NCBI GenBank assembly: GCA_013112575.1
Contig: JABFGG010000003.1
Coordinates: 83,096 to 147,095 of the forward strand
From: Chloroflexota bacterium
Lineage (GTDB): Bacteria > Chloroflexota > Anaerolineae > Anaerolineales > UBA11579
Direction: 5' to 3'
Length of the DNA: 64,000 bases
A program made the position numbers and the translations under genes. The notes under the pieces were generated by a model. The model saw only the letters and a program-made list of their open reading frames with translations. It had not been told where the DNA came from and searched no databases. Shown here one piece after another: positions 2,824 through 10,334 of this stretch (the first letter of the stretch is position 1; the number at the start of each line of letters is the position of its first letter).

Positions 2824-3739
2824 GACTGGCTGGTTAGAAGTCTCGATAATTGTAGATGGGGAGCTGGCAGAAGCCGTGGCTGAAGTGCTGGCGCGATATA
2901 CAAAGAATGGGGTGGTGATCGAAAGTACGGCTATAGACCAACCGGAGACAGGCGCAGGAACTGCCGTTGGGCCGATGCGAGTGTGTGCCTATTTACCTGC
3001 CGATGAAGAAGTGGAAGATAAAAAACAGCGCCTGTTAGAGGCGCTGTGGCATTTGGGGCAAATACAGCCTTTGCCCGAGCCAGAATTCAAACACATAGAA
3101 AACACAAATTGGATGCAAGCCTGGAAGGCGAACTACAAACCAATAGTAGTGGGGCAAGGATTGGTGGTATTGCCGGCCTGGATGGACGCAGCAGATAGCG
3201 AACGGGTTCCAATACGTATCGACCCCGGGATGGCTTTTGGCACAGGCACACACCCGACAACCCAATTGGCTTTAATGCTCATGGAAACTCATTTGCAAAA
3301 GGGGCAGGCGGCCATTGACATTGGCTGCGGGTCTGGGATCCTATCCATTGCCGCGGCTAAGTTGGGGGCAGGAGACGTACTTGGGGTGGATATTGATGCT
3401 GAAGCGGTTGAGAATGCGCAGAATAATTTGCTGGTAAATGATGTTACCGAGCAGGTTACTTTGGCGGTAGGTTCTGTACCTGAAGTAATGGCCGGACAGT
3501 ATGCCATAAAACAAGCCCCGCTGGTAGTCGCTAATATGCTGGCACATTTGTTGTTGAAAGTAATAGACCAGGGCTTAATTGATTTAGTCGCTCAGCAGGG
3601 AATATTGATCCTATCGGGGATTTTGGATGAACGCGAAGCTGAAATCAATCACGCTCTTGAGAAGCAGGGATTTGTTGTTGTAGAACGCCTTGAAGATGGC
3701 GATTGGGTGGGATTTGCAGCTAGACAGAAAGAAGATTAG
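2816..3739 (+). CDS. prmA: Ribosomal protein L11 methyltransferase PrmA
   Basis: SAM-binding motif [18 protein letters not shown]. Size and position after dnaJ fit. The ATG at 2816 is preferred over the TTG at 2813 and overlaps the dnaJ stop. Confidence 0.88.
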
Positions 3740-3945
3740 CCTTTAATTTGCTATTTCTGGGGGTTACTTCATATTATAAATTTCATACCAACAAAATGTT
3801 CCGCCCCCTCAACCCAAACCTTACATCGCACACAATCGCACTAACTCGCAGATTTGTACATATGAATTGTGAGTAATCTGACAAGCATAGTCTGGTGAGA
3901 AAAAATCCAGACGTGCACCTTAATAATCAAATAGGAAAATACCGA

Positions 3946-5739
3946 CTAACCTGGGGTCCAATGAACAGCAACGGTTGTGCCAGAGCCTGGACCTGAATCA
4001 ATCTTCAACTCAGCCCCCAGTAGTTCTGCACGTTCCATCATGCTGGCAATGCCGTAATGTTTCTCTGCTAGCAACCCAGCAAGGTCCAGCCCTGCTTCGA
4101 AGTTAAACCCTGCCCCATTATCAATGACTTCCAGTTGGATAGCTTCACTTTCAATCGTGCCACTAACGAAAATGGTTTGAGCATCTGCGTGGCGGATGGC
4201 ATTTTCGCAAGCTTGCTGCACGATGCGAAACAGATGGGCCTCGACACGTTCATCGAAGCGGTGGGGACTAGGTGGTATGGTAACTTCAATTTCAGTGCCA
4301 TGGTTGGTGCGCTTGTTGAGGGTTTGCCCGAGTTCTTCAAAGGCAGTGTGCAAACCGTGGTTCAACATAGGGGGGCGAAGATCTTGCACTGTGCCGCGAA
4401 TGTGGTCGGTTAGCTTCTGGTAATCTTTTTGAAATTCACTAGAGACATTCCCACTCATCTTCATGGAAAGAACAGCCAATTCATTAAGCACATCGTCATG
4501 TAATTCGCGGGCAATGTGTTCCTTTTCATCTTCCTGGCGCTTGACATTGGCCATGTAGAGGGAACGCAGGTCGGTTGCCAATGAGATGTTAGACACTGCA
4601 ACTGAAGTTTGGTTTGCAAGAGTTTGCAGGAATGCGATGTCGCGTTGGGAATAAAAGTCTTCAGGGTCACGCCGGCCAAACAGCCAGAGGCCAATGATTT
4701 CCCCTTCAATGTCTAGGGGAATTATGAGACGTACCCAATCAAGAGCTGATTCAGTTCCGTTCTCGGAATGGATAGGAAGATATTTGCTGGTTTGTTCAAG
4801 AAGTGCTGGAATCTGACTTCTCTGAACTTTACGATTGTCCTGGACCCCTATGGATAAAATCCTGCTCCAGCTTCCTTCTTTATCTAAAAAGAGCAAACAC
4901 GATTGACGGATGAGCATGCTGGGGAGGATCGTTTCGGACAGCACTTGATTGAGCCTTGTGAGGTTCAAGCTTCCGGTGATCTCGCGAGCGTATGAATGCA
5001 TCAGGCCTTCGGGAGGAAGAGGTATACCAAGGACGCGCTCTTCCACAAAACGCTCAAAGCGACGGAAGCCTGAAACGGCAAAGATAACCGTTAGCACGGC
5101 TACAGATACCGCAATAGTCGTGCTGCTACCGGGGAAATCCACCCAGGCCAGTAGCAAAGGAGTAATGAAAGAGATGATGGTAGCAGCAAGGAATATAAAG
5201 AGGTAGACACTAATGATGCGGTTGGCGCGGAGTTCCAGCCCCCCCAGGCGATGCCGGAAGATGGCATAAAAGTATGCGAAAGGCATAATCGGAAGGGCTA
5301 ACAAGGCCCCGGCTATAACACCCGTAGTGGTATTAAAAACAGTGGTTAATGTCACGGCCAAGAGGGGAACAAAAGAAAACAAAATTGCCCAAAGCAGCAC
5401 CCGAATTGCACGTCGTTCGGCCGGGCGCAGTATGTAGTGCATAACTGCGAGAAGAATACTTGCTAAGACGGCTATAAAGAATGCTGTTAGATGCACGGAT
5501 TCAGGCAGAACGATTAAAAACTGTGAGATGGCGATCAGTACAAATCCAAAGTAAGTGACCAGCCAAAATCTTTTTGGCAGAGAAAACAGAGGTCTGGGGA
5601 AATTCCAGTGCAGATGGACATAAATGGGTATGGCTGTCCACAAGGTGGCACGGAATATAAGAAGTAATGATATTTGGCTGTGATTCCTGTGATGAACCAT
5701 AGGGCAGTTATGAAATTGAAAGCAATCAGCAACTTCCAC
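3946..5739 (-). CDS. Sensor histidine kinase, C-terminal portion (several TM helices, GAF-like segment, HisKA_3 H-box, HATPase_c); its 5' end is probably supplied by ORF 5535-6179 across a frameshift
   Basis: H-box IARELHDDVLNEL. N/G boxes ENAIRHA, DNGAGF and GPGSGT. The N-terminal half is hydrophobic. The first ~22 codons of the tracked ORF look non-native. Confidence 0.85.
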   Translation of the reverse strand: MEVADCFQFHNCPMVHHRNHSQISLLLIFRATLWTAIPIYVHLHWNFPRPLFSLPKRFWLVTYFGFVLIAISQFLIVLPESVHLTAFFIAVLASILLAVMHYILRPAERRAIRVLLWAILFSFVPLLAVTLTTVFNTTTGVIAGALLALPIMPFAYFYAIFRHRLGGLELRANRIISVYLFIFLAATIISFITPLLLAWVDFPGSSTTIAVSVAVLTVIFAVSGFRRFERFVEERVLGIPLPPEGLMHSYAREITGSLNLTRLNQVLSETILPSMLIRQSCLLFLDKEGSWSRILSIGVQDNRKVQRSQIPALLEQTSKYLPIHSENGTESALDWVRLIIPLDIEGEIIGLWLFGRRDPEDFYSQRDIAFLQTLANQTSVAVSNISLATDLRSLYMANVKRQEDEKEHIARELHDDVLNELAVLSMKMSGNVSSEFQKDYQKLTDHIRGTVQDLRPPMLNHGLHTAFEELGQTLNKRTNHGTEIEVTIPPSPHRFDERVEAHLFRIVQQACENAIRHADAQTIFVSGTIESEAIQLEVIDNGAGFNFEAGLDLAGLLAEKHYGIASMMERAELLGAELKIDSGPGSGTTVAVHWTPG

Positions 5740-6179
5740 AAATTGTCACGCGGGCGAATCAAGAGATACGTAATGAAGCCTATAAACCAAAAGAGCAGTG
5801 AAAGCAACGGGCTATTAAAAATGCGTGAAATAGCCGCACGGGTTGTAATTCCAAAATACGTCCAAGGAATGGTTAACTCTTGGCCGTTGCGCAATATAAG
5901 TAATTCGATCTGGTCGCCGACCTGCACATTACCCAGGAATATCTCATAGGGATCATCATGAAATGTTGTCATACTATGTTCGCCGACTCTGAGCAAAATA
6001 TCCCCAATCTGTAGTGTTTGGGAATTGCTATAGATATCTGTAACATCAAATGATCGGTTGGTAAAATCGAAGCCAGGATACGGGGAAAAGAGCAGATAGG
6101 CGAAAAAATAGAATAACAAGATCGCCAAGCTTATCCAGGGGAGATATTTGAATGATCGGTCTAAAAGATTGTTATCCAT
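5535..6179 (-). CDS. N-terminal portion of the same kinase: TM1, a ~90-aa PDZ-like extracytoplasmic loop, then further TM helices
   Basis: WISLAILLFYFFAYLLF (TM1), then IGDILLRVGE...VGDQIELLILRNGQELTI (PDZ-like), then hydrophobic helices. It overlaps ORF 3946-5739 by about 200 nt in another frame. Confidence 0.7.
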   Translation of the reverse strand: MDNNLLDRSFKYLPWISLAILLFYFFAYLLFSPYPGFDFTNRSFDVTDIYSNSQTLQIGDILLRVGEHSMTTFHDDPYEIFLGNVQVGDQIELLILRNGQELTIPWTYFGITTRAAISRIFNSPLLSLLFWFIGFITYLLIRPRDNLWKLLIAFNFITALWFITGITAKYHYFLYSVPPCGQPYPFMSICTGISPDLCFLCQKDFGWSLTLDLY

Positions 6180-6264
6180 AACCTAATAACCTGAGAGGAG
6201 GTTAATTTATTGTACTTTACTGCTGAAAAATCTTGATCAAGTAATTTCATAATATAAGGAGAAA

Positions 6265-6405
6265 ATGATGTTAAGCATGCAAGCTTTTTATACCCATTCT
6301 ATAGAGCAGAAGACAAATTATCTTGGAACCTTACAGCGGATTGCCCGCGCACCCCGAAAAGTCATAAAGGACCTCGCTGTTGCCTATGCATGGGATGCCT
6401 GGTAG
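6265..6405 (+). CDS. Unlisted 46-codon ORF; candidate ComX-like pheromone/RiPP precursor ending AYAWDAW
   Basis: Hand translation gives MMLSMQAFYTHSIEQKTNYLGTLQRIARAPRKVIKDLAVAYAWDAW. AAGGAG SD at 6256-6261, a strong terminator 16 nt after the TAG stop, and a position directly upstream of the prenyl-synthase-like gene. Confidence 0.5.
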   Translation: MMLSMQAFYTHSIEQKTNYLGTLQRIARAPRKVIKDLAVAYAWDAW

Positions 6406-6420
6406 TCCATAAATTTATTG

Positions 6421-6461
6421 AAAACAACAGCCAGGGAACTCTTCCCTGGCTGTTGTTTTTC
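6421..6461 (+). terminator. Intrinsic terminator between the mini-ORF and the prenyl-synthase-like gene
   Basis: AAAACAACAGCCAGGGAA (6421-6438) pairs with TTCCCTGGCTGTTGTTTT (6442-6459) around a 3-nt loop. The T-run leads directly into the GGAGGA SD at 6462-6467. Confidence 0.75.
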
Positions 6462-6472
6462 TGGAGGACAAT

Positions 6473-7465
6473 GTGAAATTTGAAGAAAGGATGTTTAAGT
6501 TTTTGACGCAATTGGCGGTAGTCGCAGCAATCCCTGACATTGGGAAAATCATTGAGCGCGCCAATCAGGAAATGCCACCTGCCTGGCCTCTGCCAAAACA
6601 TGTCTGCGCGGCGGTGGGAGGAGGTGAAAAGGAAGCTATTGAAGCTTCAATAGCCATCGCCTGTTGCCAGATAAGTATCATCCTGATCGATGATCTTTTG
6701 GATGAAGACCCGCGTGGTGAGCATCATCGGATTGGTGTGGGCAGTGCAGCCAATTACGCTTCAGCATTTCAGACAGCGGGTATAGAAGTAGTTCTAAATA
6801 GCAATATGTCTGAAAAAACAAAGCTGCTGGCTATTCACATAATTAACAGCATGATGCGTGATACCGCCGCGGGGCAGGAGATAGATATTCAAAATCCGGA
6901 TAACGAAGAAGCCTACTGGCAAATGGTGCGTGCCAAGAGTTCGCCCTATTTCGGAGCAGCCTTCGCTGTGGGGGCATTGTTTGGCGGGGCTTCCCCGGAA
7001 CTAGCTTACCAAATGAAAAAGCTAGGTGAATTGCATGGAGAGATCGTGCAGATCGGTGACGACCTGGAGGATACGATGGAGTCTCCGGCAGGCCCCGATT
7101 GGGGTAATGGGCGTTATACGTTACCTATTCTGTTCGCTTCGATCGTCGAACATCCAGAACGGCAGCTTTTCTTGGAGATAAGGAAAAGTGTTGAAACTGT
7201 TGCGGATTTGGAAGCCGCGCAAGACATCCTGATACGTTGTGGGGCAGTCGGTTATTGCCTGGACCAGATCCTGTGGCGCTATGAGCAGGCCAAACAAATG
7301 TGGTCGGAATTTGAATTGGACGACAGGTCCCCGGTTGAGGCAATCTTCCTTGAATCCGTCACTCCGGTGTGGAATTTGTTGGGCGGATTAGGTGAGGCCC
7401 TTCCTGAAGATTTCAGACCCAACTATGGTGATGTTACTCTTGATGCTCCGGTGACTGCGGGGTGA
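6473..7465 (+). CDS. Polyprenyl-synthetase-fold protein (candidate ComQ-like peptide prenyltransferase)
   Basis: GTG start 5 nt after GGAGGA. Two Asp-rich motifs, ILIDDLLDED and QIGDDLEDT, plus GQEIDI. About 330 aa, like trans-prenyl diphosphate synthases and ComQ. Confidence 0.8.
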   Translation: MKFEERMFKFLTQLAVVAAIPDIGKIIERANQEMPPAWPLPKHVCAAVGGGEKEAIEASIAIACCQISIILIDDLLDEDPRGEHHRIGVGSAANYASAFQTAGIEVVLNSNMSEKTKLLAIHIINSMMRDTAAGQEIDIQNPDNEEAYWQMVRAKSSPYFGAAFAVGALFGGASPELAYQMKKLGELHGEIVQIGDDLEDTMESPAGPDWGNGRYTLPILFASIVEHPERQLFLEIRKSVETVADLEAAQDILIRCGAVGYCLDQILWRYEQAKQMWSEFELDDRSPVEAIFLESVTPVWNLLGGLGEALPEDFRPNYGDVTLDAPVTAG

Positions 7466-8108
7466 TTAAGCCTTTTTTACGGGCTTCTTCGATTGCAGCC
7501 GGGAGATTGCGTACACCCAGTTTGGCATAGGTGGTCGAGAGCAAATTGCGAACGGTGGAGTGAGCGATATGCAACTCCTCTGCAACTTTGGACGTCGATA
7601 GGCTGGGATCGTTGGCAAAATAATTCAGCACTTCCAGTTGCCTGGGTGTAATAATCTTTTTATTTGGGCTATCAATCAATTCTCGGGCAGCTTCGGAGAC
7701 AAAAATTGATCCAGCATTCACCTGACGTATGACCTCATCAAGCTTGCGTGTGACTTCCATGTCATCCTTGAGAACGAAACCGGCTGTGCCTACATCCAGG
7801 GCGTGTTGGATCAAATAACTCTGTTTATGCATAGATATCACTAAAACCCTGGTCCCTGGATGTTTACGCACGATCTCTGGAAGCTTATCAACCATTGGGT
7901 AGGTGCTGTCATCTTCCGCTGAAACGGGCACGGTGATGTCAAGTAGCAACACATCTATACCACCTTGCGCCAGCATGGGCTCTAATTCTGCGCCATAAGT
8001 TGCTGTTGCCACAACCTCACAGTCTGGTGCCTCACTTAAACGAAATTTGTATCCATCAATGATACTGGCATGATCGTCTAAAATGGCGATACGAATAGTG
8101 TTAGGCAT
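7434..8108 (-). CDS. NarL/LuxR-family response regulator (REC + HTH)
   Basis: IAILDDH...DVLLLDITVP receiver motifs. C-terminal LuxR-type HTH (LSTSKVAEELHIAHSTVRNLLSTTYAKLGV). The 3' end overlaps the convergent gene by 32 nt. Confidence 0.92.
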   Translation of the reverse strand: MPNTIRIAILDDHASIIDGYKFRLSEAPDCEVVATATYGAELEPMLAQGGIDVLLLDITVPVSAEDDSTYPMVDKLPEIVRKHPGTRVLVISMHKQSYLIQHALDVGTAGFVLKDDMEVTRKLDEVIRQVNAGSIFVSEAARELIDSPNKKIITPRQLEVLNYFANDPSLSTSKVAEELHIAHSTVRNLLSTTYAKLGVRNLPAAIEEARKKGLITPQSPEHQE

Positions 8109-8254
8109 TTTCTATCCCTCAACTTTTCTTTAAAGATAGCAGAGATTTGTGTATACAACAAGTGACAATCAATAATCAGTACAATTGTCTATTCTCATTA
8201 TGTTCTTAATTCGTTAAACTGGTTATTAATAATCAATTAACCTTGCAGACTGAA

Positions 8255-8289
8255 GCCATCAGTGGAGGGGGATCTACTGGTGGCTTTTT
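8255..8289 (+). terminator. Plus-strand intrinsic terminator with no adjacent plus-strand gene
   Basis: GCCATCAGTGG / CTACTGGTGGC stem (11 bp including 2 G-U pairs), 8-nt loop, then TTTTT. Confidence 0.5.
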
Positions 8290-8314
8290 ACTTTAAATAA
8301 GTGTATAATGAATC

Positions 8315-8361
8315 TGCACCTTCTAGCCTGCCCCCCTCAGGTTGGGAGGTGCATTTTTTTT
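8315..8361 (+). terminator. Second plus-strand intrinsic terminator
   Basis: TGCACCT...AGGTGCA outer stem with inner CCTG/CAGG pairing, followed by T8. Confidence 0.6.
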
Positions 8362-8437
8362 ATAGCTCTTTTCATTTACCTGTAATACTAGTTGTTTAGA
8401 AGAGGTTTTATTGAAGCTTTCTTGTTGATTTTGCCTA

Positions 8438-8466
8438 TTGACAAGGTCCTGTTATTTTCGTACACT
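8438..8466 (+). promoter_or_regulatory. Sigma70-type promoter of the ilv-leu operon leader
   Basis: TTGACA (8438-8443), a 17-nt spacer, then TACACT (8461-8466). It lies 23 nt upstream of the leader-peptide ATG. Confidence 0.5.
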
Positions 8467-8488
8467 GTCTGACAACTGTGTGAGAAAA

Positions 8489-8599
8489 ATGTTTATATTA
8501 AATTTTAGCGTACTCTTCAGCCTTATTTTGGTCAGCCTTGTGCTCGTTCTTATTATTAAGAGCGCATTTATGCATTGGGCAGCCATACCGGCTGAGTGA
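8489..8599 (+). CDS. Ile/Leu/Val-rich leader peptide (36 aa) of the ilv-leu operon
   Basis: Hand translation gives MFILNFSVLFSLILVSLVLVLIIKSAFMHWAAIPAE. 16 of 36 residues are I/L/V, and 11 of 12 at codons 12-23. A terminator lies immediately downstream. The SD is weak. Confidence 0.6.
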   Translation: MFILNFSVLFSLILVSLVLVLIIKSAFMHWAAIPAE

Positions 8600-8657
8600 G
8601 AATAAGCAATAGACTGGTTATTCAAAAGCTGCCCAATCGGGCAGCTTTTTTTATTTT
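8574..8657 (+). promoter_or_regulatory. Attenuator: mutually exclusive antiterminator and terminator
   Basis: ATTGGGCAGC (8574-8583, inside the leader ORF) is perfectly complementary to GCTGCCCAAT (8628-8637), which is also the 5' arm of the terminator. Confidence 0.55.
8623..8657 (+). terminator. Intrinsic terminator 22 nt upstream of the ilvD ATG
   Basis: AGCTGCCC (8627-8634), aatc loop, GGGCAGCT (8639-8646), then TTTTTTTATTTT. Confidence 0.8.
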
Positions 8658-8678
8658 GGAGAATAGAGAGGAACAAGC

Positions 8679-10334
8679 ATGCGCTCAGACATCATCAAAA
8701 CCGGTTACGACCGAGCCCCCGCAAGAGCAATGCTCAAGGCAGTTGGCTTTACAGATGAAGACCTTAAGAAGCCCATTATCGGTGTAGCCAATACTTGGAT
8801 CGAAGTTGGCCCCTGTAACTTCCATTTGCGACGATTGGCAGCCAGAGTAAAGGAAGGCATCCGTGCAGCAGGTGGTACGCCAATGGAATTCAACACGGTC
8901 TCCATCTCAGACGGAATCACCATGGGTACAGAGGGCATGAAAGCCTCGCTGATCAGCCGTGAGGTCATCGCCGACTCGATCGAGCTGGTCGCTCAGGCTA
9001 ACCAGTTCGATGCTGTCGTGGCCCTATCCGGTTGTGACAAAACCATCCCGGGAACCATCATGGCGCTGGCGCGTCTTGATGTGCCCGGGATGATGTTATA
9101 TGGTGGATCTATTGCCGCAGGTAGTTTTGAAGGGCGTGATGTGACCGTGCAGGATGTCTTTGAAGCGGTGGGGGCCCACGCTGCTGGGCATATGAGTGCT
9201 GAACAACTGAAAGCTCTGGAAGACGCGGCTTGCCCTGGGCCGGGGGCATGCGGTGGGCAGTTCACGGCCAACACCATGGCGACGGCTGGTGAGTTCCTGG
9301 GCATCAGCCCAATGAGCACGGCCAGCGTACCGGCTACCGATGGTGACAAGGATGATGTTGCCTTTGGGATTGGTCAGACCCTCATGGATATGCTGGAGCG
9401 GGGCACTAAAGCACGCGACATCCTCACACGTGAAGCCATTGAAAATTCCATCATGTCCGTGGTGGCGACTGGCGGCTCGACCAATGCCGTATTGCATCTC
9501 CTGGCAATCGCCAACGAAGCTGGCGTGGAATTGGATATTGACGTCTTTGACCAGATCAGCAACAAGACCCCTTTATTGGCAGACCTTAAACCCGGTGGAC
9601 GTTTTGTGGCTATTGATTTGCATAAAGCCGGGGGCATCCAATTGGTAGCCCAACGGCTGCATGAAGCAGGCTTATTACATTCTGACGCTATCACCGTGAC
9701 GGGCAAGACAATTGGTGAAGAAGCTCAAAAAGCGGAAGAAACTGAAGGCCAGGAAGTGGTGCGGTCACTGGACAACCCCGTCAAAGAAACCGGCGGCCTG
9801 GTGATCCTCAAGGGCAATCTCGCCCCGGAAGGCTGTGTGGTCAAGATCGCAGGACATGATATGCGCCATCACAGCGGACCGGCACGGGTATATGATTGTG
9901 AAGAGGATTGTTTCGAGGCCGTGCAGAGCGGCGAGATCAAACCCGGGGACGTGGTCGTGATCCGTTACGAAGGTCCCATGGGCGGCCCGGGGATGCGCGA
10001 AATGCTGGGAGTTACGGCGGCCATCGTAGGGGCCAAACTGGATGACTCCGTTGCTTTGCTCACTGACGGCCGCTTCTCCGGGGCCACACACGGCCTGATG
10101 GCTGGGCACGTTGCACCAGAAGCAGCGCGTGGTGGCCCGATCGCCGCCGTACAGAATGGGGACACGATCACTTTTGATGTAGAAAAACGCCAATTGAATC
10201 TCGAAATAACAGAAGAAGAAATGAAATCCCGCATGCAAGACTGGCAGGCTCCCACACCTCGATACGCCCGCGGGGTGATGGCCAAGTATGCCCGTCTGGT
10301 GTCTTCGGCTGCCGAAGGTGCAGTATGCGTATAG
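8679..10334 (+). CDS. ilvD: Dihydroxy-acid dehydratase
   Basis: ILVD/EDD family motifs ([20 protein letters not shown]). 551 aa. Confidence 0.96.

Follow-up and report, generated by a model that had tools for sequence, protein, structure and literature searches.

We describe a four-gene locus at positions 3946–8108 of a 64 000-nucleotide stretch (hereafter the window) of contig JABFGG010000003.1 (positions 83 096 to 147 095, forward strand; assembly GCA_013112575.1) from a Chloroflexota bacterium. The locus is probably, in our judgement, a signalling module of the ComQXPA/PalPXQ type, i.e. one using a Trp-prenylated peptide, that is native to the Anaerolineae (Chloroflexota). It comprises genes for a ComP-like sensor kinase, a very short open reading frame (ORF; X), an enzyme (Q) and a response regulator. 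The initial annotation, made from the sequence alone, had placed these four components within 4.2 kb, had likened their logic to that of Bacillus subtilis comQXPA in a different gene order and had called the context non-Bacillus-like. All four are present where it had placed them, except that the kinase ORF is not intact. The proposed logic is supported by a conserved layout, an X family with invariant Trp residues, an enzyme without the region that binds isopentenyl diphosphate (IPP) and a ComP-like kinase; the window does stem from a Chloroflexi metagenome-assembled genome (MAG), and a Chloroflexi MAG encodes a hypothetical protein with 100 % identity to Q. We observed directly which genes are present, how far they are conserved and diverged, which motifs they keep and how their domains are arranged. 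The features are as follows.

3946..5661, minus strand: 3′ part of the kinase gene, with the remaining transmembrane segments, GAF, HisKA_3 (H-box ARELHDD) and HATPase_c
5649..6179, minus strand: 5′ part of the kinase gene, with the first transmembrane segment (TM1), an extracytoplasmic PDZ-like loop, TM2 and TM3; frame lost at a deletion
6193..6203, plus strand: Shine–Dalgarno (SD)-like leader element GAGAGGAGGTT; family consensus gAAAGGAGGTGrT, the full complement of the 16S rRNA 3′ end
6256..6261, plus strand: ribosome-binding site of X, AAGGAG
6265..6405, plus strand: X precursor-peptide gene, 46 amino acids (aa), MMLSMQAFYTHSIEQKTNYLGTLQRIARAPRKVIKDLAVAYAWDAW, with W-x-x-W at the extreme C-terminus
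6420..6461, plus strand: stem-loop between X and Q, a 19-bp perfect stem followed by a T-run
6473..7465, plus strand: Q, enzyme and putative Trp prenyltransferase acting on X, 330 aa, trans-isoprenyl diphosphate synthase (trans-IDS) fold
7434..8108, minus strand: NarL/LuxR-type (ComA-like) regulator, 224 aa, convergent with Q

Scanning a single genome per species yielded 183 relatives, of which the best 80 loci were examined; all 80 are from Chloroflexota, mostly Anaerolineales, Anaerolineaceae and Ardenticatenaceae MAGs. The initial annotation had suggested looking in related genomes for the four-gene neighbourhood and for a Trp-bearing mini-ORF, and both are conserved. The exact layout, i.e. 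kinase (minus), mini-ORF, enzyme, regulator (minus), is kept in 52 of the 57 loci with enough flanking DNA (53 when counted by eye, the small ORF of locus L057 being the same as that of L052). Among the exceptions are two loci with no kinase and two of a variant group, in which the kinase gene stands downstream in the same orientation. This arrangement is far beyond chance. DnaJ, PrmA, IlvD and IlvB, which are encoded around the cassette in the window, recur in none of the 80 loci; the cassette is therefore self-contained and its four genes travel as a unit.

The cassette varies in several respects. Two MAGs carry paralogous pairs of cassettes with differing X peptides, namely L002/L005 in MFD01213.bin.1.46 and L012/L078 in SRP077602_co5_33, and parallel signalling channels fit such double cassettes better than a housekeeping enzyme does. 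In 36 loci, e.g. L003:4091–5212 (minus), a fifth gene that is absent from the window lies directly downstream of the kinase gene and encodes a product of about 373 aa whose N-terminal domain is of the HTH_31 (XRE-like) type. Six loci (L065, L073, L075, L077, L078 and L079) form a variant subfamily with an X leader reading M.IEEFNALL... and W-x-x-W retained, in which the kinase gene follows downstream of the enzyme gene in the same orientation and the vicinity yielded no homologue of the regulator; in L065, the enzyme gene is doubled in tandem.

The mini-ORF had been recognised as 46 codons ending in AYAWDAW behind an AAGGAG sequence, and it is found as described, with the SD sequence at 6256–6261. 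A second ATG at 6268 has better SD spacing and is the start used by gene callers on other assemblies (45 aa). A member of the same family, i.e. a small ORF ending 50–90 nt upstream of the enzyme gene, occurs in 74 of the 79 loci that could be assessed. There are 71 unique sequences, which measure 42–64 aa (median 53) and share an N-terminal M-x-x-M-Q-x-F-Y, a central L..LT+.S..Q and an invariant W-x-x-W after (S)(D)L, with F8, W43 and W46 invariant throughout. Every X start is an ATG (70/70), preceded by an SD core at −18 to −4 in 66 of 70 cases. From these sequence features, X can be regarded as a real protein-coding gene family. The two Trp residues of the window X stand at positions −1 and −4, and the tail beyond the second Trp is absent in eight of the 71 sequences (the window and seven others) and 1–16 residues long in the other 63; members with such a tail would need trimming if the acceptor were the C-terminal Trp. 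An AlphaFold2 model of X, based on a single sequence and hence weak evidence, has two helices (5–28 and 31–45; predicted local distance difference test (pLDDT) score 84) forming a helical hairpin.

The interval 3946–6179 (minus) had been taken for one multi-pass kinase gene. Homology to a single kinase of about 750 aa with an H-box (IARELHDDV) stands, but a single intact ORF does not: the interval measures 2234 nt, which is no multiple of three, and holds ORFs 5535–6179 (214 aa) and 3946–5739 (597 aa) in different frames. The orthologous kinases are single ORFs of 746–790 aa, and when aligned to the window their frame switches between 5649 and 5661, with residues ~15–196 aligning to 6143–5649 in frame −3 and residues ~185–760 to 5661–3952 in frame −2, the latter part matching Pfam GAF_2, HisKA_3 and HATPase_c. 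Contig L082, from another sample (SRR10579384), encodes an intact kinase of 747 aa; over 4.7 kb it matches the window at 100 % except that the window lacks 10 bp, CTATCGGGGT, at ~5657/5658. The gene for the receptor is therefore broken in the genome of the window, an intact allele being found in L082, and the deletion may represent a natural receptor-null allele. The same deletion is present in a second contig, L081 (SRR7585905), which together with the window perhaps does not constitute independent data. The intact L082 kinase is organised as follows.

Residues 13–31: TM1
Residues 32–122: extracytoplasmic loop
Up to residue 375: about nine further transmembrane segments, including the conserved P[VI]YLHLHWxFP[RK]P
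Residues ~390–535: GAF
Residues 555–603: HisKA_3
Residues 650–743: HATPase_c

Analysis of the sensor domain was based on locus-derived orthologues; a homologue search with the N-terminal 174 aa of the kinase returned none. A profile of the loop from 11 orthologues matched only PDZ domains in the PDB (DegQ, DegP, DegS, AlgW and RseP; best E = 2e-5), and nine of the 11 members matched Pfam PDZ_2 below threshold. Within the membrane domain, the motif P[VI]YLHLHWxFP[RK]P (residues ~176–200 of the intact allele; window ~5560–5650, minus) is highly conserved in all kinase orthologues examined and could be a ligand- or lipid-contact site.

The regulator, annotated initially as a NarL/LuxR-type response regulator, indeed combines a REC and a GerE domain (Pfam Response_reg PF00072 and PF00196). 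Its gene converges with Q, whose 3′ end it overlaps by 32 nt; in 55 of the 57 loci that could be assessed, a minus-strand regulator gene comes downstream of Q. Divergence within the cassette was compared for one pair only, i.e. the window (L082 for the kinase) and its closest relative L084, as amino acid identity and non-synonymous divergence (dN).

ilvD flank, window vs L084: 95.8 % identity, dN 0.02
ilvB flank, window vs L084: 90.4 % identity, dN 0.05
Regulator, window vs L084: 77 % identity, dN 0.14
Q, window vs L084: 72 % identity, dN 0.22
Kinase overall, L082 vs L084: 65 % identity
Kinase sensor, L082 vs L084: ~50 % identity, dN 0.31
Kinase catalytic part, L082 vs L084: ~75–88 % identity
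X, window vs L084: 44 % identity, dN 0.50

The order of dN is thus X > sensor > Q > regulator, which is consistent with, and no proof of, signal–receptor co-diversification as in comQXP (PMC4008528). The proportion of synonymous differences (pS) is 0.75–0.82 in the cassette and 0.60 in the flanks, i.e. near saturation, so that synonymous divergence was dropped as a test for cassette replacement.

These kinase and divergence data bear on an alternative that we regard as unlikely, namely that Q does prenylate X and the product is a lipidated ribosomal natural product (antimicrobial or surfactant-like) or a cis-acting membrane-anchored peptide, the two-component system merely regulating or auto-inducing its production, as with lantibiotic regulators. 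The succession X–hairpin–Q resembles ribosomal-peptide biosynthetic operons, and 36 loci have the extra HTH_31 protein beside the cassette. Among described relatives, PalPXQ is a cluster for a RiPP, a peptide made on ribosomes and modified after translation, without a demonstrated signalling role (PMC10853753), and StheX from the Chloroflexi member Sphaerobacter thermophilus lacks an established biological role (bioRxiv 10.64898/2026.08.29.745113). However, the neighbourhood of the cassette shows no conserved genes for transport, immunity or tailoring, the kinase has the architecture of the ComP receptor with an extracytoplasmic domain of the peptide-binding type (PMC9620489), and X and the kinase sensor diverge fastest, as expected of a signal and its receptor.

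The 330-aa protein with a polyprenyl-synthetase fold and the Asp-rich motifs DDLLD and DDLED, as first annotated, is encoded at 6473–7465 (IDDLLDEDPRG and QIGDDLED), with a GTG start and GGAGG upstream. Only the general superfamily model recognises it (Pfam polyprenyl_synt PF00348; 70.5 bits, 1.7e-19), and none of the NCBIfam synthase equivalogs passes (best 68.9 bits against a cut-off of 450; IdsA 61 against 468). In an alignment of 25 sequences, the first Asp-rich motif (FARM; D73-D74-x-x-D77-x-D79) and a canonical second Asp-rich motif (SARM; Q193-x-x-D196-D197-x-x-D200) are invariant, and G134, Q135, D138 (GQxxD) and K155 are invariant or nearly so. Where region I should have GGKRxR, the family shows PxxWxLP including an invariant W38, a placement that depends on the alignment offset, PRG stands in place of RRG, and PA.PDW in place of the region-VII GK. 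PDB synthases align to the Q profile only from position 40 onward. As judged from these alignments, Q lacks the IPP-binding features of chain-elongating synthases.

In an exhaustive profile search, the Q family comprises 256 clusters at 50 % identity (E <= 1e-30) and stands well apart from thousands of ordinary synthases. ComQ sequences were retrieved with a B. subtilis ComQ query, which matched a database protein at 100 % identity, and hhalign related the Q family to ComQ with a probability of 96 % (E = 2.7e-9; 22 % identity over 232 columns). In the profile placement against ComQ and synthases suggested at the outset, the homology to ComQ is significant, but the raw score is nearer to geranylgeranyl diphosphate synthase (GGPPS) than to ComQ. 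Q therefore forms a clade of its own and lies outside the ComQ family proper; by its motifs, it appears ComQ-like in the lost IPP site and PalQ-like in the kept SARM and upstream Gln. The AlphaFold2 model of Q has a pLDDT of 90.8; a fold search was set aside as a discriminator, as synthases and indole prenyltransferases were not separated. No second polyprenyl synthase was found within the 64-kb window.

That Q is instead an enzyme of isoprenoid metabolism under two-component control, i.e. a specialised synthase of prenyl diphosphates or else an enzyme akin to terpene synthases whose product is a small lipid or volatile, with X as a separate small regulatory protein that is no substrate of Q, appears improbable to us. 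It would agree with the retention of both Asp-rich motifs, with GGPPS and polyprenyl transferases as the best PDB and NCBIfam matches, with the generic trans-IDS folds returned by Foldseek and, weakly, with the helical hairpin modelled for X alone. Against this, the K/R of region I that binds IPP is missing and each of the 25 aligned members has a changed RRG and GK, Q falls far short of the synthase equivalog threshold (69 bits against 450) and diverges far faster than its housekeeping neighbours, and the family is confined to one lineage, sometimes duplicated per genome and always beside a W-x-x-W mini-ORF.

Two elements flank X. The stem-loop between X and Q has a folding energy of −30.8 kcal/mol (z = −8.7) in the window, and a stem of at least 8 bp occurs at this place in 63 of 66 loci (median z = −5.4), its sequence being different at every locus. 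A classical terminator after X was rejected, as only 14 of 69 loci have a T-run (at least 4 T) after the hairpin; the stem-loop is therefore treated as a conserved element and not necessarily as a full terminator. It may attenuate, partially terminate, process or stabilise the X transcript. In ribosomal-peptide operons the precursor gene is followed by a hairpin, and X–hairpin–Q reads by analogy as such a layout. About 55 of 59 loci have the SD-like leader element. Its distance from the X start is nearly constant at ~70–100 nt (81–100 nt in most loci; median 87.5 nt), while that from the divergent kinase start ranges between 13 and 140 nt; the element is often followed by ATTATAGCG, and no conserved ORF follows it. 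Stabilising SD-like elements occur in Gram-positive mRNAs, and this analogy suggests a predicted ribosome-binding 5′ stabiliser of the mRNA or a standby site. Taken together, leader element and stem-loop suggest that the X transcript is short and abundant and that only limited read-through reaches the enzyme gene. An Rfam search of 3700–8700 at a permissive E-value returned nothing in the cassette except spurious miRNA matches on the hairpin, and a scan for the sigma-70 consensus gave no excess over shuffled sequence and no convincing X promoter. It is very improbable that the mini-ORF serves as a leader that is translated and in which the two invariant Trp codons close to the end, with a strong hairpin ~15–25 nt further on and a T-run in the window, make up a Trp-sensing transcription attenuator of Q with a functionless peptide, as such a leader would not need MQxFY and LT+.S..Q, which are conserved across loci with Q only 40–50 % identical, most hairpins miss the T-run, no alternative antiterminator structure was seen and Q is no Trp-biosynthesis gene.

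Several observations weigh against a ComQXPA/PalPXQ-type signalling module. The receptor gene is disrupted in the very genome from which the window comes, and the prenylation chemistry, the export and processing of the peptide, the pairing of ligand and receptor and the regulatory output are steps that we infer. No conserved linked exporter, protease, transporter, immunity or tailoring gene is found near the cassette in the related loci. X resembles neither ComX nor NHLP leaders: 44 members had no match in Pfam (ComX PF05952 included) or NCBIfam (NHLP and Nif11 leaders included), and the family had none among PDB chains. The tail length, which varies from 0 to 16 residues, does not point to one mature form of X. 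As to the enzyme, Q has a canonical SARM (DDxxD) instead of the ComQ pseudo-SARM, its profile scores ComQ at 18–40 bits against 75 for a GGPPS (5jfq) and 55 for the indole prenyltransferase Ord1, and Foldseek on the Q model returned only generic trans-IDS folds (TM-score ~0.75), with Ord1 at rank 45. The N-terminal kinase sequence is not significantly similar to ComP, the architecture alone matching. No consistent palindrome that might be an analogue of the ComA box is shared upstream of the SD-like element, a TCGCGG-CCGCGA palindrome being confined to one subgroup. Finally, with synonymous sites near saturation, the raised divergence of the cassette is only suggestive.

Taking a peptide signal as the function of the cassette, we propose the following sequence of events. 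X (45–46 aa) would be a ribosomal precursor composed of a helical leader (MQxFY...L..LT+.S..Q) and a C-terminal core with the two invariant Trp residues (W-x-x-W). Its mRNA would be short and abundant, reaching from the SD-like 5′ leader element to the 3′ stem-loop, and Q would be made from limited read-through. Q, with a trans-IDS fold, would keep the site for metal and allylic diphosphate (FARM, SARM and K155) but have lost the IPP-binding residues, and would put a geranyl, farnesyl or longer group on one or both Trp indoles of X. The lipopeptide would then be trimmed and exported by host functions and sensed outside the cell by the ComP-like kinase, the PDZ-like loop and the polytopic membrane domain being the likely sensing surfaces. 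C-terminal peptides are ligands of PDZ domains. The kinase would phosphorylate the NarL-type regulator, leading to altered transcription. The strain of the window would probably still make the signal; since its kinase gene is frameshifted, it is probably signal-blind, unless the 3′ ORF gives a truncated, sensor-less kinase.

We more tentatively put forward, as a proposal with slightly less in its favour than against it, that Anaerolineae have their own widespread pheromone system, in which W-x-x-W precursors are singly or doubly prenylated by a SARM-retaining trans-IDS-like clade and read by ComP-type kinases with PDZ loops. If so, ComQXPA-type signalling would be an old module across Terrabacteria and no speciality of the Firmicutes, and the natural receptor-null allele of the window would be a signal-blind variant. 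Signal-blind variants occur in other quorum-sensing systems. Anaerolineae are filamentous Chloroflexota that are plentiful in sludge, sediments and digesters. A full-text literature search, the coverage of which was incomplete, gave no description of the Anaerolineae cassette, the W-x-x-W peptide family or peptide signalling in Anaerolineae. A complete and conserved cassette of enzyme, peptide, receptor and regulator is present in a Chloroflexota class other than that of the Sphaerobacter pair reported in 2026, with about 250 enzyme clusters (50 % identity) and a new precursor family. If confirmed, it would be, to our knowledge, the first dedicated peptide signalling system in the ecologically important and hard-to-cultivate Anaerolineae, a novel clade of biocatalysts prenylating Trp, unusual in its two-Trp core, and a test case for a ComP-type PDZ loop reading peptide C-termini.

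Beyond the cassette, a 36-aa leader ORF that is very rich in Ile, Leu and Val (MFILNFSVLFSLILVSLVLVLIIKSAFMHWAAIPAE, 8489–8599) lies upstream of ilvD-ilvB-ilvN-ilvC-leuA, together with a promoter-like sequence at 8438–8466 and a terminator-like GC hairpin with a T-run at 8624–8649. This region looks like a branched-chain amino-acid attenuator; Rfam gave only a weak Phe_leader match (35.9 bits against a gathering score of 55). The intergenic region between the regulator gene and ilvD also holds two strong terminator-like hairpins with T-runs, at 8252–8287 and 8315–8353 (plus), and no upstream plus-strand gene ends there.

Among known systems, the cassette is best compared with ComQXPA, which a 2014 census, in which the polymorphism of comQXP is also described, placed in Firmicutes only (PMC4008528), whereas the host here belongs to the Chloroflexota (Anaerolineae). 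ComX and other peptide pheromones with a prenylated Trp have been regarded as typical of the Firmicutes. ComP/ComA-like pairs without Q or X were noted in Chloroflexi by a KEGG-based survey (PMC8895600). Like the Bacillus system, the cassette combines an enzyme of trans-IDS fold that has no IPP-site residues, a small precursor bearing a Trp near its C-terminus, a ComP-type kinase and a NarL-type regulator, and in the single pair compared the divergence of X, Q and the kinase sensor outpaces that of the regulator and the flanks. Unlike the Bacillus genes, which run Q-X-P-A on one strand, those of the cassette are ordered P (minus), X (plus), Q (plus), A (minus), with X upstream of Q. ComX (52–73 aa) has its Trp within the last 5–10 residues, whereas X (42–64 aa) has two invariant Trp at i and i+3, the W-x-x-W lying 0–16 residues from the end. 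Q shares ~22 % identity with ComQ and has a canonical SARM (HDDLxD) where the ComQ alignment reads QIxxDYxxLF; the pseudo-SARM that marks the ComQ family (IPR033965) is NDxxx or similar, its first Asp having been lost.

An AlphaFold analysis of ComP described ten transmembrane segments and, between TM1 and TM2, a PDZ domain for which binding of ComX was proposed (PMC9620489). The cassette kinase has the same succession of ~10 transmembrane segments, PDZ-like loop between TM1 and TM2, HisKA_3 and HATPase_c, and differs by a recognisable GAF domain. The first loop of a Bacillus ComP (comQXPA locus L085) gives the same weak PDZ signal and the catalytic cores align at 83 bits; direct homology of the N-terminal parts was rejected, their similarity not being significant. 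The regulator is 19 % identical to ComA (BLASTP, E = 1e-7). In L085 (Bacillus, CP051464.1; 6186–8501), comP is also split in two frames (309 and 473 aa), i.e. the receptor is disrupted there too.

The characterised trans-IDS-like peptide prenyltransferases (ComQ, PalQ and ChrPC) all modify Trp (PMC13290415). In PalP-PalX-PalQ of Paenibacillus alvei, which we compared by description (PMC10853753; PMC13290415), a kinase, a precursor with a C-terminal Trp and a trans-IDS-like prenyltransferase are likewise clustered. PalQ has an intact SARM (PMC10853753) with a Gln three residues upstream, as has Q (Q197/D200 in PalQ; Q193/D196 in Q), and it prenylates the extreme C-terminal Trp, the residue in which the window X and, in all, eight of the 71 family members end. 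In contrast to PalPXQ, 63 of the 71 X sequences carry a tail of 1–16 residues, X matches no NHLP model whereas PalX has an NHLP-type leader, and a response regulator is part of the Anaerolineae cassette.

Closest by host is the Sphaerobacter pair, likewise compared by description, in which StheQ farnesylates Trp of the adjacent StheX in vitro (bioRxiv 10.64898/2026.08.29.745113); the chemistry thus exists in Chloroflexi. As in the cassette, a ComQ-like, all-alpha prenyltransferase with a FARM of the pattern D-[DE]-x-x-D-x-D adjoins a small ORF with two near-C-terminal Trp. Unlike X, StheX has 69 aa, is encoded downstream of StheQ and has adjacent Trp residues (−3, −2), and StheQ differs from Q by a pseudo-SARM (N215-D216-x-x-D219), by having no kinase or regulator described and by its origin in Thermomicrobia instead of Anaerolineae.

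The chain-elongating geranylgeranyl, farnesyl and octaprenyl diphosphate synthases share with Q the fold (TM-score ~0.75), FARM, GQxxD, the region-V Lys and SARM, and are its best PDB sequence matches. They differ from it by possessing GGKRxR, RRG and GK, whereas Q is far below the NCBIfam cut-offs, restricted to one lineage and always linked to the genes for X, kinase and regulator. Compared with all of these systems, the cassette follows a known logic, but the clade of its enzyme, the family of its peptide, its layout, its cis elements and the lineage of its hosts are new.

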